Shown in pieces: positions 31,759-54,777 of a stretch of DNA of 64,000 bases. Both the position numbers and the translations under genes were made by a program. Below the pieces are notes generated by a model, which saw only the letters and a program-made list of their open reading frames with translations, was not told the DNA's origin and ran no database searches. The stretch lies in contig CAZMLK010000001.1 of NCBI GenBank assembly GCA_964567265.1, positions 395,723 through 459,722 on the forward strand, written 5' to 3'. Source of the stretch: an uncultured Candidatus Saccharibacteria bacterium. GTDB lineage: Bacteria; Patescibacteriota; Minisyncoccia; Phycocordibacterales; UBA12088. How positions within the stretch are numbered: position 1 is the stretch's first letter; each line of letters starts with the position of its first letter.

Positions 31759-31830
31759 TGACCCTACCGGGAGTCGAACCCGGCTTTAGAGCTTGAGAAG
31801 CTCTCGTCCTAACCGATAGACGATAGGGCC
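31759..31830 (-). tRNA. tRNA-Glu (anticodon CUC)
   Basis: Hand-folded 72-nt cloverleaf: acceptor GGCCCTA/TAGGGTC, D-arm GTCT-ATCGGTTA-GGAC, anticodon arm AGAGC-TTCTCAA-GCTCT, 4-nt variable loop, T-arm CCGGG-TTCGACT-CCCGG. CCA is not encoded. Confidence 0.9.
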
Positions 31831-48206: not shown

Positions 48207-49316
48207 TTAGAATAACCGGACGATATCCTGGTACGTAATAGCGGCCATGAGGACAAGAAGAAGGATAAGGCCGCCTGCATTGAGAAAGTTCGCAATCTTA
48301 GGGGAAATCGGAGTTCCTTTCACCGCCTCGATGAGGACGAAGAGGAGCCGGCCGCCGTCCAAAGCCGGGAATGGGAGCACGTTGATCACGGCCAGGTTCA
48401 GCGAGATGAATGCGGTGAAAGTGATCAGATAGACGAGGCCGAGGCGGGACGCATCGCCGACGAGCCCGACGATGCCGACGGGGCCGGTCACCTGCGAGAG
48501 ATCGGCCTTGAGGACGAATGCACTCTTGAAGAAGGTCACGAGGCCTGCCGCGACTTCATACGTCTTCTGTCCCGTCATGATCGCGCCTTCATAGAGCGCG
48601 CGCACCGGATTGTATTTCAAGGTTGCCGTGAGCGCCATCACGATACCGGCAGCGGCACGATCAGGCTCATCCTTGATGATGCCTTTTACCGGAGTCACGG
48701 TCAGGATTCCCGATTCATTGGCGCGTTCGTACGAAACGACCAACGGCAGGTTACCGTGGCTCGCGATGAAACGGAGGACGGAATCGGGACTAAGCGCGTT
48801 CCCTTCAAGCGACTCGGCGGAACCTGCCTCTATTTTTGAAATCACGTCACCCGGCTTGAGGCCTGCCTCGGATCCCGGCGCATCCGGAACGACTGCGACG
48901 ATCTCTACCTTCGCATCCGGAACGGTGTCACGGTCTTCAGGTGCGAGCGAGGTCGGCATGCCGATCATGAACCCGAGCGAAAATAGGAGCCACGCGAAGA
49001 GGATGTTGCCGATGATGCCTGCGAGGAGGATCAGCGCCTGGACCCATTTCGGCTTGTTCGGAAAACTCCGCGCGCTGTCGGGCCCGGCAAGTGACGCATC
49101 GTCAGGATCCTCGCCGAAGATCTTCACGTAGCCGCCGATCGGGAGGAGGTTGAGGACGTAGCGCGTCTCGCCCCGCTTGATACTCGCGACCTTCGGCGGG
49201 AAACCGAGCGCGAATTCATCGACGCGGACGCCGAGCTTCTTGGCGGTGATGAAATGCCCGAACTCGTGGACAAAGACCAGGGTGCCGAGCACGAGGAGGA
49301 AGAGGACTATGGACAT
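48207..49316 (-). CDS. rseP: RIP metalloprotease RseP (M50 site-2 protease) with PDZ domain
   Basis: VHEFGHFITAKK (HExxH), PDZ segment (GLKPGDVI), and NVLPFPALDGG. Confidence 0.9.
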   Translation of the reverse strand: MSIVLFLLVLGTLVFVHEFGHFITAKKLGVRVDEFALGFPPKVASIKRGETRYVLNLLPIGGYVKIFGEDPDDASLAGPDSARSFPNKPKWVQALILLAGIIGNILFAWLLFSLGFMIGMPTSLAPEDRDTVPDAKVEIVAVVPDAPGSEAGLKPGDVISKIEAGSAESLEGNALSPDSVLRFIASHGNLPLVVSYERANESGILTVTPVKGIIKDEPDRAAAGIVMALTATLKYNPVRALYEGAIMTGQKTYEVAAGLVTFFKSAFVLKADLSQVTGPVGIVGLVGDASRLGLVYLITFTAFISLNLAVINVLPFPALDGGRLLFVLIEAVKGTPISPKIANFLNAGGLILLLVLMAAITYQDIVRLF

Positions 49317-49319
49317 GTG

Positions 49320-49871
49320 TTATTCGCTTATTTCTGCGTCCTTCTTTTCGGCCAGGAGTTCGAGCGCCTGATTGCCCTTATCGATGAGTTTTTGCATATC
49401 TTCTTTCGCGCGGAACTTCTCGTCCTCGCTCATCTCGCCCGCCTTCTCTTTTTTCTGGATGTCGTTCCATGCCTCGTCACGGCCCGAGCGGAGCGCGATC
49501 CGCGCTTCCTCAAGCTTCCCTTTCGAGAGCTTCACGAGCATGCCGCGGCGCTCTGAGGTCAGCTCTGGGAATGAGACGCGGACACCGCGATCGTCGGCGC
49601 CGACGGAGACGCCCATGTCTGCGGCAGTAATCGCCTTCTCGATCTCCTTCGCTTGCGACATATCCCACGGAGAGATGCGGATGGTGCGCGCATCCTCGAC
49701 GGAAATATTCCCGACCTGATTCAGCGGGACCTTCGAGCCGTACGAATCGACGCGGATATTGTCGAGCAGCTGCGGGGTCGCGCGGCCAGTCCTGATGCCC
49801 GAATATTCCCGCTTCAGCCAGTCTTCTGTTTCTGCGATTTTCTTCTTGAGTGGTGTGAAATCGTATGCCAT
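49320..49871 (-). CDS. frr: ribosome recycling factor
   Basis: LKREYSGIRTGRATPQLLD.I.VD.YG...PL.Q ... SE..R.....IQK. Start at the internal ATG of track ORF 49320..50069, with TAGAAT 8 nt upstream. Confidence 0.9.
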   Translation of the reverse strand: MAYDFTPLKKKIAETEDWLKREYSGIRTGRATPQLLDNIRVDSYGSKVPLNQVGNISVEDARTIRISPWDMSQAKEIEKAITAADMGVSVGADDRGVRVSFPELTSERRGMLVKLSKGKLEEARIALRSGRDEAWNDIQKKEKAGEMSEDEKFRAKEDMQKLIDKGNQALELLAEKKDAEISE

Positions 49872-49914
49872 ATGGGGCCATTCTAACGTAGATTCCGCTT
49901 CCTGTGTATGGAAA

Positions 49915-50227
49915 ACAAAAACGCTCCGACATGGGAGTCGAAGACGTTGGTTGGGATGGAGGGGTTGCGCATGGGCAACCGCCTCCTCCCTGATCTGTAT
50001 GGATATGCTCGGGCCTGAACACGGTATGAGCGTCTCAGGAAGTCCGATGATTCCAAGGGTGACACACACCCTTTCATAAGGCCTGACCGGATGTATAACC
50101 CGGCAACGGGGTCCAGAGATTCTACTTCATGGCACATCTCCTCGGCTGCGTCCGGCCTGAGACCGGTTGTAGCGCTTGGTGTTGCAGTCGTGGCTGGTTT
50201 GGCCTTCCTCCTATATTTGCTGGAAAA
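49915..50227 (-). ncRNA. candidate ~300-nt structured RNA (unassigned)
   Basis: Part of a 440-nt interval with no credible ORF. Minus-strand TTGACA-N17-TATCTT promoter at 50228-50256 and a T-run (GAGCGTTTTTGTTTTCC) near 49915. Contains a 15-bp hairpin at about 49953-49990 and several shorter hairpins. Confidence 0.3.
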
Positions 50228-50256
50228 AAGATATCACGTGATTGACTTATTGTCAA
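50228..50256 (-). promoter_or_regulatory. sigma70-like promoter of the candidate RNA
   Basis: Minus strand: TTGACA-17 nt-TATCTT. It overlaps a plus-strand TTGACT as a face-to-face -35 palindrome, TTGACTTATTGTCAA. Confidence 0.45.
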
Positions 50257-50312
50257 GCTCATTTTCTATTGTGGGATTTGGGGCAGATGAGTCATACATA
50301 GAGCCGTTTTTT

Positions 50313-51023
50313 CTACTGTTCAAAAAACGGACAGATGAGCGCGACATATTCGAGGAGGATCTTCGGCGAGGCGCCCGGGTCGGAGATGTGGCGCTTCGCG
50401 AGCATGACGGCTTCCAGCGTTTCCTGGAGCGCTTGGCTCGGGACCCCCCCGCTCGCCGCGAGGCGGATCCTCGCGGCGAGCGCCTGCTCAAGTCCGCCGA
50501 GGAAATCGACTGCGTGCGATCGGTCCTTCGTATCCGAAATCGTACCGAGGAGCTTCTTCAACTTGTCGAGGCGATTTGCAGGAGTGAGTGCAAGAAATTG
50601 CATTGCCGCTTCCGTGTCGCTGACATGCGGCATCGAAATGATCTGCATGCGCGAGCGGATGGTCGGGAGGACAAGGTCGGCGTTCGGGACGAGGAGAAAA
50701 AAATGAAGGCCCTGTGGCGGCTCTTCGAGGATCTTGAGGAGCGCGTTCTGCGCCTGCGCCGTCAGGATCTTCGCGCCGATCACGAACACGCGCCGCGCTC
50801 CGAGGGGGCGAATATATGCATCTTCCTTGAGTTCCCTGCTTTCTTCAACGCTCAGGGTCTCGAACATGCGGCCATAGTAATCGGGATTTCCAATGACAGA
50901 GCCCTTCAGGACCTCCTCGACGAAGGAAATGACGAGGGGCTCGTTGACCATAAGATCGCCCGGCACCAAGTACGCATGATGCAAGCTGCCTGTTTCCCGA
51001 TACTGCTTTCGAAGCTGCTCCAT
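50313..51023 (-). CDS. holB: DNA polymerase III delta-prime subunit-like (clamp loader AAA+ without intact P-loop)
   Basis: GSLHHAYLV.G ... NALLKILEEPP.G..FFLL ... LPTIRSR. Start at MEQLRKQ, with TATGCT 9 nt upstream. Confidence 0.7.
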   Translation of the reverse strand: MEQLRKQYRETGSLHHAYLVPGDLMVNEPLVISFVEEVLKGSVIGNPDYYGRMFETLSVEESRELKEDAYIRPLGARRVFVIGAKILTAQAQNALLKILEEPPQGLHFFLLVPNADLVLPTIRSRMQIISMPHVSDTEAAMQFLALTPANRLDKLKKLLGTISDTKDRSHAVDFLGGLEQALAARIRLAASGGVPSQALQETLEAVMLAKRHISDPGASPKILLEYVALICPFFEQ

Positions 51024-51118
51024 TACCGCTCCAGCATACTGGAGATATGCACTTTGCTGAAATTGACACACTTCATGAAAGTTGTATGTTGAAGAGAGCA
51101 CATGAAAGGAGTTGCGAC

Positions 51119-51256
51119 ATGTCCGCAGCTACGAGTCATCAGATCGGGGTCCCCGTTGGACAGCCGATCGCGAGTTCCGTGAACGACCTGGCAGTATTTC
51201 TCGTCGTCGCGGGTATAGTCGGCAGCATTGCACTCCTGTTCTTCGGCGTCAAATAA
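51119..51256 (+). CDS. 45-aa tail-anchored membrane micro-protein
   Basis: AAAGGAG RBS 7 nt before the ATG. MSAATSHQIGVPVGQPIASSVNDLAVFLVVAGIVGSIALLFFGVK. A 15-bp hairpin follows. Confidence 0.5.
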   Translation: MSAATSHQIGVPVGQPIASSVNDLAVFLVVAGIVGSIALLFFGVK

Positions 51257-51267
51257 CGACGCAGTAT

Positions 51268-51300
51268 TCGGCACGGATTCCCTTCGGGAATCCGTGCCGA
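51268..51300 (+). terminator. hairpin terminator
   Basis: 15-bp stem TCGGCACGGATTCCC-ttc-GGGAATCCGTGCCGA. The T-tract is weak. Confidence 0.6.
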
Positions 51301-51398
51301 AATTATTATCGCGGAACTCTCGCCATGCGCGCGCATTTACAAAAATGAATTTTAAGCATCTAATGTCAGCAGAACATCGCTCTTGAGAGGGGCCGTTG

Positions 51399-51938
51399 AT
51401 GCCGCATACCCCGGTGAATGCAAGCGTTCCTGCAATCTATTACGGCGAGCAGTATGCAATTGAAAGGATCGTGGATGCACGCAAAGTCGAGCGTGACATT
51501 TTCAGGAGGCGTGTGGGCGGGATGATCGTCGAACCTACGGACGGGACCCTGTTCCAGTTGCTCACTCCGAATGCCGCATGGCAACATCCGGAGCGTCCTT
51601 TTTCGCTTCGGGAGTGCCTGACATTCCGGAGCGTGCCCGCATGGGACCCCTCTGATCCAGGGGGCAACCCGATCCGAGGCTTCGTTCGAGCCAATAGAAC
51701 GGAGTGGGAAGATCATATCTCTTCAGGGGCCATCCCGCTCGGGCATTTCTTGGGCGCGATCGTAGTGCCGATCCTCCCCGCCAAAGCTGGCGGAACGCCT
51801 GACCTGCTCACGACGCCTTCGATTCCCCAAAAAACAAGGAATGCCGGCGTCGACCCGGCATGGAGGGCTAGAGTCGGGTGCGCGATCATCGTCGCACTCC
51901 TTCTCTTTTACCTACTGAACCTCTTGCCCAAAAGTTAA
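51399..51938 (+). CDS. hypothetical protein with C-terminal TM anchor (179 aa)
   Basis: GAGAGGGG RBS 6 nt before the ATG. C-terminal VGCAIIVALLLFYLLNLL. Terminator downstream. No recognised motif. Confidence 0.5.
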   Translation: MPHTPVNASVPAIYYGEQYAIERIVDARKVERDIFRRRVGGMIVEPTDGTLFQLLTPNAAWQHPERPFSLRECLTFRSVPAWDPSDPGGNPIRGFVRANRTEWEDHISSGAIPLGHFLGAIVVPILPAKAGGTPDLLTTPSIPQKTRNAGVDPAWRARVGCAIIVALLLFYLLNLLPKS

Positions 51939-51968
51939 ACCCCGCACATCCATGCGGGGTTCTTTCTT
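51939..51968 (+). terminator. rho-independent terminator
   Basis: ACCCCGCA-catcca-TGCGGGGT followed by TCTTTCTTAT. Confidence 0.75.
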
Positions 51969-54777
51969 ATATGATTTTCGGAGGCGATACTGGAAGCGTC
52001 GACTCCTTGCGGTAGCGCGCGAGGATATCTTCCTCCACGAGCGAGCGCGCCTTTCCATATTTGAGATATGAGAGCTGCTTCAGCGCTTCCGCATTCTCAG
52101 GATTCCCCGCCTTCGGTGCCATTGTCCTGATATTGAACGGCTTTGCCGGCCTCCCTTCAGCGAGAATCTTGAGGTACGCGTTCCGGTTGTCGATATTCAT
52201 GATGTCGCTCGCAGCGAAGGTCGGCGCGAACTGCGGCTCGAAGAATTTCGCATCCTCGGCGCCGACGCGGAACACCGCCATCGATCCGACGTTGCCGAAG
52301 ATCGAATCCCGGATGCCCTCCTGGAGCTGCGCGATGAACTGGTGCGCCACCGTGAGCCCGAGCTTGTACTTGCGCGCTTCGGAAAGGATGGTCGAGATGG
52401 AATCGGTGGTGACATTCTGGAATTCGTCGATATAGAGATAGAACGGCGGCATCTCCTTCCCACTGCCGAACGCGTCCACGCGCGAGAGCGCTGCCATGAG
52501 GATCTTGCCGACCAGGATGAGGCCGAGGAGATTCGCGTTGATGTCGCCGAGCCGGCCCTTCGAGAGGTTCACGAGGAGGATCTTCTTCGAATCCATCACC
52601 TCGCGGAAATTGAACGCGGATTTTTCCTGCGCGATGATCGGGCGCATGTACTCGTTCGCGGTGAAGACATCGAACTTGTTCGTGATATACGGCACGATGT
52701 TCGCGAGCGATGCTTCCCCCTGTGCCTTCGTGGCGATCTCCTGCCAGAACTGGAGGACGACCGGGTTCTTGCAGTGTGAGAGCTTGAGCGCGCGATACTT
52801 CGCGTCCGCGAGGACGCGGGACACATCGAGCAAGGTCATGCCGCTCTCGGGGTGCTCGAGGACGAGCAGCGTCGCGTTGCGGAAATACTGCTCGAATGCA
52901 GGGCCCATCGACTCGGGAGAGCCGGCGTACAACTTCTTGAAGATGCTGAAAAGCTCATTGACCACGAAGGTCTTCTGTTCCGGGAACCGGGGATCGTATT
53001 CGAGCATGTTGAGGCCCATCACGCGCTCCATGTATGCGGGATCGAAGTAGATGACGTCTTCCGCGCGCTCGGGCGGGATCGCGGCGAGGATATCCTGCAC
53101 ATCGCTACCATGCGGATCGATGAAACAGACGCCTGCGCCCTCCTCTATGTCCTGGATGATCATGTTCTTGAGGAGCGTCGTCTTACCGGTACCCGTCTGC
53201 CCGATCACGTAGAAATGTCGGAGGCGATCCTCTGGCGCGAGATACGCTTTCGTTTCCGCATTACGGAATGAATTGATGCCGAGAAGCGTCCCCGTTGCTG
53301 AGAGCCCGAGCGGCGGCGGCGCGTCAGCGGATTTCGACTGCCGGAATTCGGGCGAGGATTTCACGACGCCTGTCGGGAAGTGGAGCACAGTCGCAAGCTC
53401 GCGGAGCGAAAACGGGAACGATTCGGCGGCGCCGAAATCACGGAAGGTGAAGCGTGTCAGGAGCGCACGAAGCGCGCCGCCCGTCGCCCGTACGAATTCG
53501 AAGCGATTGCCATCCGCATGATGGAATTGATGGAAGCTCGATTCGATGTCGCGAAGGATGCCTTCAGCGCGCGCCTGGTCAGTCGCGGATACCACGATGC
53601 GGACATTGACCGGCACAATGAAGGATTCCCTCTTTTTCCTGATCGCTTCAAGGGCGACCTTGTCGACAATCTTTTCCTCAGGCGCCTCTTTTGCTTCAGC
53701 CGGCTTCGAGGAGAGGAGTGCGCCTTTGAGCGCGCCGCCGATCGCGAATGCGGCACTTCCGAGAAGGCTCGATTCGACTTCGCGATACACGATCTTTGGC
53801 TTCTCACCCTTCTCGATACGCTTCTCGATGCGGAGGTAGCGCCCGAGATAATCGTCACGGCCAGGTCGGATCACGAACTGGATCGACGCACCTGCTCCCT
53901 CCTTCTCGATTTTCGAGAACGCATTCAAAAGCACTGAGAGCGGATCGACATCAAATGCATCGTAGGTTTTTATCGGATAGATCGGGAGTTCTGCAAGGCG
54001 CGCGGTCGAAGCCAGTGTCACGCCGTTCTCTACGAAGATGTTGTAGTCGCCTTTTTCCTCGCGGAGATGCGCATGCGGGAAGAGCGACAAGAGCTGCTTC
54101 TCGAACAGCTCTGCCTTGGTGGTCGGCACCGATACATAGAAGACGATTTCCTGGCTTGCTGATGAAACGGCGACTTCGAAGACGAAGACCTCGCCGGTGT
54201 CATTCTCGCGAGATCCCGTGCCGAAGAGTCCCGAATAGAATTGTTCCATCACAGAGACCAGCTCCTTGATGGTCTTCCGCTTCGCGCTTCCGGCATCCTC
54301 ATCCTGATTGATGGAAGGCAGTGTCACTTCGTACAAGGTCATGTTGAGCTCGCGCCAGACCGGCTCATTTTCCTTCACCCCCGGCACTGGATATCCGGCA
54401 TGGATGTATTGCACGAGGACGCGGTGGAAATCGTCGGCGATATGCGGGCTATCCATGCGGTCAGCGACCGTGAGCGCATTCTTGAGTCCCTTGTCGCGCA
54501 TGACGCCAAGAAGCTCGCCCATGATGGCGTCGTCCTTCTCAGGCGGCAGGTCGAGGATGATGTCATCCACTTGCTCGGCAGTGAGGATGCGTTCCTGTGG
54601 GAGCACTGATTCCGAAAGCGCGCGTCGGTATTCCTCGATATGCGCGCTTGTTGCCGCTTCCTTGGAGACCGGATAGCCGATTTCTGCCATGGCACGCTCC
54701 TTCTCCGCGATCTGGCCGCGCAGATACTGAATCTCCTCCTCAGGAGAGGAGAATTTCTCGTTCACTGGGAATTCCAT
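51967..54777 (-). CDS. VirD4/TraD-like (type IV coupling protein family) P-loop NTPase with a ~480-aa soluble N-terminal domain and no TM segments
   Basis: HFYVIGQTGTGKTTLL (Walker A), CFIDPHGSD, FYLYIDEFQNV (Walker B), RKYKLGLTVAHQFIAQL. These resemble the TrwB/TraD/VirD4 ATPase core. The N-terminal half has no motif I recognise. Confidence 0.75.
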   Translation of the reverse strand: MEFPVNEKFSSPEEEIQYLRGQIAEKERAMAEIGYPVSKEAATSAHIEEYRRALSESVLPQERILTAEQVDDIILDLPPEKDDAIMGELLGVMRDKGLKNALTVADRMDSPHIADDFHRVLVQYIHAGYPVPGVKENEPVWRELNMTLYEVTLPSINQDEDAGSAKRKTIKELVSVMEQFYSGLFGTGSRENDTGEVFVFEVAVSSASQEIVFYVSVPTTKAELFEKQLLSLFPHAHLREEKGDYNIFVENGVTLASTARLAELPIYPIKTYDAFDVDPLSVLLNAFSKIEKEGAGASIQFVIRPGRDDYLGRYLRIEKRIEKGEKPKIVYREVESSLLGSAAFAIGGALKGALLSSKPAEAKEAPEEKIVDKVALEAIRKKRESFIVPVNVRIVVSATDQARAEGILRDIESSFHQFHHADGNRFEFVRATGGALRALLTRFTFRDFGAAESFPFSLRELATVLHFPTGVVKSSPEFRQSKSADAPPPLGLSATGTLLGINSFRNAETKAYLAPEDRLRHFYVIGQTGTGKTTLLKNMIIQDIEEGAGVCFIDPHGSDVQDILAAIPPERAEDVIYFDPAYMERVMGLNMLEYDPRFPEQKTFVVNELFSIFKKLYAGSPESMGPAFEQYFRNATLLVLEHPESGMTLLDVSRVLADAKYRALKLSHCKNPVVLQFWQEIATKAQGEASLANIVPYITNKFDVFTANEYMRPIIAQEKSAFNFREVMDSKKILLVNLSKGRLGDINANLLGLILVGKILMAALSRVDAFGSGKEMPPFYLYIDEFQNVTTDSISTILSEARKYKLGLTVAHQFIAQLQEGIRDSIFGNVGSMAVFRVGAEDAKFFEPQFAPTFAASDIMNIDNRNAYLKILAEGRPAKPFNIRTMAPKAGNPENAEALKQLSYLKYGKARSLVEEDILARYRKESTLPVSPPKII

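Follow-up and report, generated by a model that had tools for sequence, protein, structure and literature searches.

A putative small RNA gene with a conserved, structured 3' domain in the holB-frr spacer of a Patescibacteria genome

Among the described RNAs that come closest to the subject of this report are the trans-acting sRNAs of the RsaE/RoxS type and of the alpha-proteobacterial mmgR type, which are independent promoter-to-terminator units in intergenic spacers, and 6S RNA, which is fast-evolving, defined by its structure and often missed by sequence searches. In the CPR (Patescibacteria), whose genomes are very small and contain hardly any non-coding DNA, regulatory RNAs are almost unexplored, which makes a candidate from this group of moderate interest. 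To our knowledge no regulatory RNA of the CPR has been characterised by experiment, and a literature search on ncRNAs of the group found nothing relevant. The locus analysed here lies in a 64,000-nt stretch of a Patescibacteria genome of the Paceibacteria type (the window), where the spacer between holB and frr is 440 nt long (49872-50312) and has no credible ORF.

An earlier note made from the bare sequence had called this interval gene-free. Pfam searches confirm both flanks: frr (49320-49871, minus strand) matches RRF (E 1.8e-52) and the holB-like gene (50313-51023 or 50313-51101, minus strand) matches DNA_pol3_delta2 (E 1e-19). The order on the minus strand is DUF8128/DUF87 ATPase gene (51967-54777), holB-like gene, the 440-nt interval, frr, rseP (48207-49316), a small ORF and proS. 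The holB ORF is listed from a GTG at 51101; the N-termini of its relatives (M..L...Y...G.LHHAY) match the ATG at 51023 (MEQLRKQYRETGSLHHAY), and holB is therefore probably 26 codons shorter. The 865 nt between the DUF8128/DUF87 gene and holB (51102-51966) have no alignable counterpart in the 288-384 nt that relatives have at this place. The stretch holds plus-strand ORFs, at 51047-51256 (69 aa, with a hydrophobic tail) and 51396-51938 (180 aa), each with a strong hairpin behind it (51267-51301 and 51938-51961), and may be an inserted gene pair. Within the holB coding sequence an inverted repeat, perfect over 14 bp and closed by a loop of 5 nt (50450-50482; CGCTCGCCGCGAGG / CCTCGCGGCGAGCG), is the source of chance Rfam matches, and an AU-rich hairpin, CCGTTTTTT-GAACAGTAG-AAAAAACGG, read by eye, lies across the stop codon (50304-50330). 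A weak direct repeat of the holB 3' end just past the stop was considered as a duplication and is not convincing (it scores 10, where shuffles average 6.5 and reach 12).

Scanning confirmed two signals that the earlier note had placed on the minus strand, a TTGACA-N17-TATCTT promoter at 50228-50256 and a T-run closing a span of roughly 310 nt. The promoter is of the sigma-70 type, with a -35 box TTGACA (50256..50251), a 17-nt spacer and an extended -10 region TGaTATCTT whose -10 box is at 50233..50228; it has 10 of 12 consensus matches and a TG before the -10 box. The promoter scan found two sites in the region, against 0.6 expected. The terminator scanner called a hairpin at 49943..49924 followed by CGTTTTTGTT; the complete intrinsic terminator has its stem at 49948..49920 and its T-run at 49919..49911, and a conserved ACCAACGUC box leads into it (49911..49952). 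The predicted transcript, of about 310 nt (49911..50221, minus strand), would start near 50221, 7 nt past the -10 box, and end within the T-run. The interval thus has features generally expected of an sRNA gene: its own promoter and an intrinsic terminator on one strand, and no coding capacity.

The closest frr relatives in the genome collection were all Patescibacteria MAGs and at most 67% identical, and closer ones were obtained by an frr protein search followed by contig look-ups (metagenomic contigs). In four of these, L034, L035, L036 and L037 (frr 76, 75, 75 and 70% identical to that of the window), the holB-frr spacer is gene-free and 254, 384, 592 and 637 nt long, respectively. The spacer is 45 nt in L045 (frr 69% identical) and 110 nt in L047 (68%), while in L038 (72%) 29 nt separate frr from a truncated upstream ORF. 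The synteny DUF8128 gene-holB-spacer-frr-rseP is common to L034, L035 and L037; L036 is a short contig ending just upstream of the spacer, so that the frr-rseP side alone is visible. The window spacer aligns to that of L037 with 65% identity over 149 nt (E 2e-9) and shares with L036 a colinear series of blocks, namely the promoter, CGGACTTCC and CCATCCCA(A)CCAACGTCTT. The predicted transcript is colinear with the first of two units in L037 (about 310 nt) and with a unit of about 460 nt in L036. Read by eye, the promoters of these two have the same layout about 55 nt past the holB stop (TTGACA-17-TGtTAACTT in L036, TTGACA-17-TGtTAATTT in L037); their -10 boxes are weak, with 3 of 6 matches rescued by the TG extension only, and fall under the scanner threshold. 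The terminator is retained in all three sequences. The -35 box of the RNA unit lies inside a palindrome, TTGACAnnnnGTCAA, in the window (50242-50256) and in L036 (gap 51-65) and not in L037; this palindrome could be an operator.

The interval had been described as highly structured, which proves true of one half of the unit and not of the other. Folded whole and compared with shuffles, the 440 nt give z = -2.63 on the minus strand and -2.95 on the plus strand. The 3' 163 nt (49911-50073) reach z = -5.45 on the minus strand, where none of 200 shuffles was as good, and -3.20 on the plus strand, whereas the 5' 149 nt fold no better than shuffles (z = +0.24). The homologues behave in the same way: the 3' domains of L036 and L037 have z = -4.05 and -4.90, and the 5' arm of L037 has z = -0.13. 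Conservation, like structure, is confined to the 3' ~165 nt (49911-50073). The variable 5' arm (50074..50221, minus strand) aligns poorly between homologues, is about 150 nt long in the window and about 225 nt in L036, and showed no consistent structure with MAFFT variants and alifold. It has an AGGAGG box, read from the sequence, with no start codon behind it. The hairpin CCCG-GCAA-CGGG singled out by the earlier note is present and falls in this non-conserved half, outside any supported structure.

The 3' domain consists of four hairpins (H1, P2, H3 and the terminator), the same in the single-sequence folds of the window, L036 and L037. The first, H1 (50055..50073, minus strand), is AAGGGUG-UGUGU-CACCCUU and was predicted separately in all three. 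P2 (50009..50047, minus strand), which takes the same fold in each sequence, rises from a 4-bp base (yCGG/CCGr) through a conserved 4x1 internal loop, in which AyUU faces C, to an upper stem of 9 bp whose sequence varies; its flanks, CGGAyUUCC and GGCCCG, are invariant. A single-stranded GAUCA linker (49991..49995, minus strand), invariant in the three-sequence alignment, precedes H3 (49953..49990, minus strand), the 15-bp element of the earlier note (GGGAGGAGGcGGUUGC-CCAUGC-GCAACCCCUCCaUCCC), which begins with CAGGGAG and carries a 62-nt insertion in its loop in L036. Conserved sequence lies at junctions and linkers (CGGAyUUCC...GGCCCG, GAUCA, CAGGGAG and ACCAACGUC). Of the 47 loci searched for ACCAACGTCYT, L036 and L037 alone have it.

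For the covariation analysis the three 3' domains (window, L036 and L037) were aligned by hand, module by module, with N for gaps. There are 44 pairs, of which 18 differ on both sides, and standard pairs fill 99.2% of the cells; the count is biased towards the structure, because the alignment was fitted to it and comprises three sequences. In the controls none of 500 shuffles reached any of five measures, and partners slid by 1-3 columns paired in only 38-50% of cases. The pairs changed on both sides are spread over the hairpins: four of seven in H1 (100% of cells paired), five of nine in the upper stem of P2 and one of four in its base, five of 15 in H3 (helices 4 and 5; 100% of cells paired) and three of nine in the terminator stem. 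The 15-bp hairpin at 49953-49990 and the AAGGGTG/CACCCTT hairpin at 50055-50073, both picked out in the earlier note, are real and are conserved with compensatory changes. An uncurated MAFFT pairwise alignment with RNAalifold recovered the helices only partly, and the counts accordingly depend on the alignment; the independent single-sequence folds are alignment-free support for the modelled structure. Four G-U cells become A-C mismatches if read on the plus strand, so that promoter, T-run, better z-score and G-U cells all point to the minus strand as the RNA strand.

How strong is this conservation at the distances involved? Fourfold-degenerate sites of frr are 33-41% identical among these genomes and hence saturated, so that neutral DNA would no longer align, whereas the 3' domain is 52-67% identical. 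Sequence and structure are thus conserved above the neutral level, as judged from three sequences in a hand alignment. Conservation and covariation in relatives had been named as a check on the ncRNA proposal, and a homologous unit with compensatory changes (in that same hand alignment, n = 3) occurs at the same locus in two of them.

A covariance model of the 3' domain, R1 (175 positions, 44 pairs), scores the three known members at 148, 141 and 57 bits, the 57 bits being those of L036 with its large insertions. Run on the window and 32 loci, R1 detected neither a second copy nor anything in L034 or L035; a 16-bit match in L020 was rejected as a generic hairpin plus terminator lacking P2. Searches of 33 genome-scan loci (20 from Patescibacteria) with the spacer by blastn and nhmmer found nothing. 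A three-block pattern run on the metagenome collection gave two chance matches in high-GC coding DNA and no new member; the viral scans gave nine chance matches and none, and R1 rejected all nine. The frr homologues P0019 and P0023 have short spacers.

L034, L035 and L038 have no window-type unit at the locus, and R1 found none elsewhere in the loci fetched; since these relatives are equally close, the unit is dispensable. L034 and L035 have other promoter-to-terminator units, not alignable to that of the window, and L037 has two units in tandem, the first homologous to the window unit and the second (promoter 2755-2782, terminator 2938-2957) aligning to the L034 unit. By frr identity L037 is nearer to L034 (83%) than to the window (70%), which implies that the ancestor of the clade had the window-type unit and that some descendants have lost or replaced it. 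The second unit (L037:2745-3000, L034:2747-3000) is about 170 nt long, is unrelated to the first, has a CCUCCC box just ahead of its terminator and shows a weak, sub-threshold likeness to mmgR/suhB (E 0.21) and sbrA (E 0.4). A third type of unit, in L035 (2617-3000; TTGACA-16-TAATAT, about 230 nt), ends in a long perfect hairpin terminator and is followed by a short hairpin and T-run resembling the terminator of the window unit, possibly a remnant of a lost window-type unit.

On this comparative evidence we consider that the minus-strand segment from about 50221 to 49911 is probably a stand-alone sRNA gene of about 310 nt, belonging to an undescribed, lineage-restricted family. The proposal of a ~300-nt minus-strand ncRNA in the earlier note is supported by the covarying unit in two relatives, the lack of any matching Rfam family and the lack of a conserved small protein. 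Most likely the unit represents a new family of a known kind, the sRNA genes, and this family is seen in no more than three genomes. Transcription would begin at an extended -10 sigma-70 promoter, some 90 nt past the holB stop, and the intrinsic terminator would end the transcript about 40 nt before frr. Comparison with the two relatives divides the predicted RNA into a 5' arm that evolves fast and a conserved 3' domain with four hairpins. It might act in trans as a regulatory or protein-binding RNA, in which the 3' domain could serve as a stable scaffold or protein-binding module and the variable 5' arm or the ACCAACGUC box could contact targets; these roles are conjectural. Invariant junctions and linkers combined with covarying stems would fit a protein-binding or tertiary-folded scaffold better than an antisense seed. 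When the window and nearby genes were searched for complements of the ACCAACGUC box, no consistent match appeared; the analysis yielded neither a target nor a partner protein nor any conserved complementarity. As an accessory gene, it would have been present in the ancestor of a small clade of Paceibacteria and later lost or replaced in some members. The putative sRNA gene is a concrete candidate: its coordinates are exact, it has two homologues and a structure model, and it can be checked in metatranscriptomes. Its impact is limited, because no more than three genomes show it, close relatives do without it and no target is proposed for it.

A bolder version of this proposal, which we put forward tentatively and think doubtful, is that the unit would be the first representative of a new structured RNA class in the CPR, a protein-binding three-hairpin scaffold with a hypervariable 5' arm, and that the holB-frr spacer is a site for sRNA cassettes. 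If so, unrelated small RNA genes would be gained, duplicated and swapped there: one unit in the window, L036 and L037, a second in L037 and L034, and another in L035. The junction is highly variable in the 20 Patescibacteria genomes, with holB adjoining frr or separated from it by an nth-like 220-aa gene or other small ORFs. The nth-like gene is found in L001, L002, L005, L006 and L007, small ORFs in L004, L008 and the Kaiserbacteria L039-L042, no spacer in L038, L045 and L047, and RNA-like promoter-to-terminator units in L034-L037. A pseudogene remnant was rejected, as tblastn with the nth-like and other junction genes of relatives left no trace in the window interval.

This same variability speaks for the likeliest rival to an sRNA gene, namely that the spacer is non-functional, what is left of an old insertion decaying where recombination is frequent, and that its hairpins and promoter-like boxes mean nothing as a unit. 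The loss of the unit in L034, L035 and L038 and the unstructured, unconserved 5' half fit it too. We nevertheless judge it unlikely: conservation of the 3' domain is far above that of saturated synonymous sites, the changes in its stems are compensatory, and promoter and terminator are kept in three sequences out of three. A 440-nt spacer with a promoter, a terminator and a covarying fold in a tiny genome is probably functional.

Because its terminator lies only about 40 nt before frr, the structured domain could instead be a cis-acting leader or attenuator, of riboswitch or T-box type, for a frr-rseP-proS operon, with the 3' domain as sensor and the terminator as expression platform; an aminoacyl-tRNA synthetase gene, proS, does lie downstream in the same direction. 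The arrangement of frr makes this improbable. The promoter scan found a promoter TACACA-17-TAGAAT for frr itself (49880..49908, minus strand), which is the downstream boundary of the RNA unit and not part of it, and whose -10 box ends 8 nt before the frr ATG (49871). Nearly all the Patescibacteria relatives (L001-L047), spacerless ones among them, have a -10-like box (TAGAAT, TATACT, TATAAT or TACAAT) that ends 6-9 nt before the frr ATG, and they lack a Shine-Dalgarno sequence there; in L036 the promoter reads TTGAAA-16-TAGAAT. With a -10 box so near the ATG and no Shine-Dalgarno sequence, the frr mRNA has apparently its own promoter and no leader, and leaderless frr mRNA appears to be the rule across this group of Patescibacteria. 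A literature search on leaderless mRNAs in Patescibacteria found nothing relevant. The frr promoter and the position of the second L037 unit, which rather than frr comes next after the RNA, argue against a cis leader; besides, no conserved antiterminator alternative was found by eye, no T-box or riboswitch family matched in Rfam, and neither the shared 5' UTR promoter nor the aptamer or T-box sequence that would place the unit among riboswitches or T-boxes was found.

A very divergent housekeeping RNA, that is, RNase P RNA on the plus strand, 6S RNA, SRP RNA or tmRNA, is compatible with the size of the unit and is nevertheless very improbable. At the gathering score, Rfam matched only a tRNA (31759-31830) in the whole window. 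At E<=10 there were only chance, microRNA-type matches in 49700-50500 on both strands and only chance matches in the four homologous loci (L034-L037); the RNase P, tmRNA, 6S and SRP models, which the earlier note had wanted run, were no exception. ARAGORN found no tRNA or tmRNA in 49000-51500 and nothing in L034-L037. The note had also pointed to plus-strand strings reminiscent of RNase P RNA, while declining to assign it on account of their spacing. The strings exist, one of them, GGAAGUCCG, resembling CR-I, but only this one recurs in the homologues, as GGAArTCCG, which is the reverse complement of the conserved minus-strand CGGAyUUCC; TCATAAGG and ATAACCCGGCAA are specific to the window and missing from the homologues. 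Declining was right, as there is no covariance-model match and the boxes are about 55 nt apart.

RNase P RNA was rejected because Rfam gave no RNase P match in the window region (both strands) or in L034-L037; in a test for CR-I and CR-V (P4) no homologue had ACAGAAnCCGG or GGAAAGTCC, the CR-I-like GGAArUCCG alone being conserved, and a unit absent from the locus in L034, L035 and L038 is unlike a housekeeping gene. tmRNA was rejected since ARAGORN and Rfam were negative for a tRNA-like domain or tag frame, 6S RNA since Rfam gave no match and the covariation fits four separate hairpins and not a rod with a central bubble, and SRP RNA since Rfam gave no match and P2, which does have a 4x1 loop, conserves neither its upper stem nor its loop sequence. 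Promoter, T-run, z-score and G-U pairs indicate the opposite strand from that of the RNase P-like strings. The RNase P lead can therefore be dropped, and the analogy in size with RNase P RNA, tmRNA and 6S RNA leads nowhere.

That the spacer encodes a small protein, either the 84-aa ORF (49883-50137, minus strand), a 29-aa ORF starting in the H3 loop with a GGAGG 9 nt before its AUG (read from the sequence), or a plus-strand ORF from 50091 with a transmembrane-like segment, is hardly credible, since none of these is conserved, the minus-strand ORFs run across both the terminator and the frr promoter, the 29-aa ORF lacks its start codon and has a frame-shifting 5-nt deletion in L037 and is broken by the 62-nt insertion in L036, and the plus-strand ORF is antisense to holB and open until 51092. 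The lack of coding character that had been ascribed to the 84-aa ORF and to a 106-aa ORF (49759-50079, plus strand) holds: the homologous spacers keep neither of them, a Pfam search with the 84-aa ORF gave no match, and tblastx among the spacers gave no conserved ORF, only short stop-containing matches in several frames on both strands.

How, then, does the putative sRNA compare with known systems? It shares with RNase P RNA a size range and, on the plus strand, the CR-I-like GGAAGUCCG, and differs in having no CR-V/P4 partner, in motifs about 55 nt apart as against about 250 nt or more, in strand, in its absence from close relatives and in matching no covariance model. With 6S RNA it has in common the fast evolution under a structural definition referred to at the outset; unlike 6S RNA it is made of consecutive hairpins and not of a long rod with a central bubble, is 310-460 nt long and has no Rfam match. 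The tracrRNA/sgRNA-like and omega RNAs resemble it in architecture, a variable arm being joined to a conserved scaffold of several hairpins with a terminator at its end; the unit, however, has no nuclease or transposase gene nearby and no repeat array, and its variable arm, at about 150 nt (about 225 nt in L036), is far above guide length. Its likeness to the trans-acting sRNAs of the RsaE/RoxS and mmgR types extends beyond the independent promoter-to-terminator unit in an intergenic spacer to a conserved single-stranded box just ahead of the terminator, to the C-rich CCCCUCC and to an accessory, lineage-restricted distribution. From these sRNAs it differs in being longer than most, at about 310 nt, in matching no Rfam family and in conserving a three-hairpin scaffold rather than a short seed.
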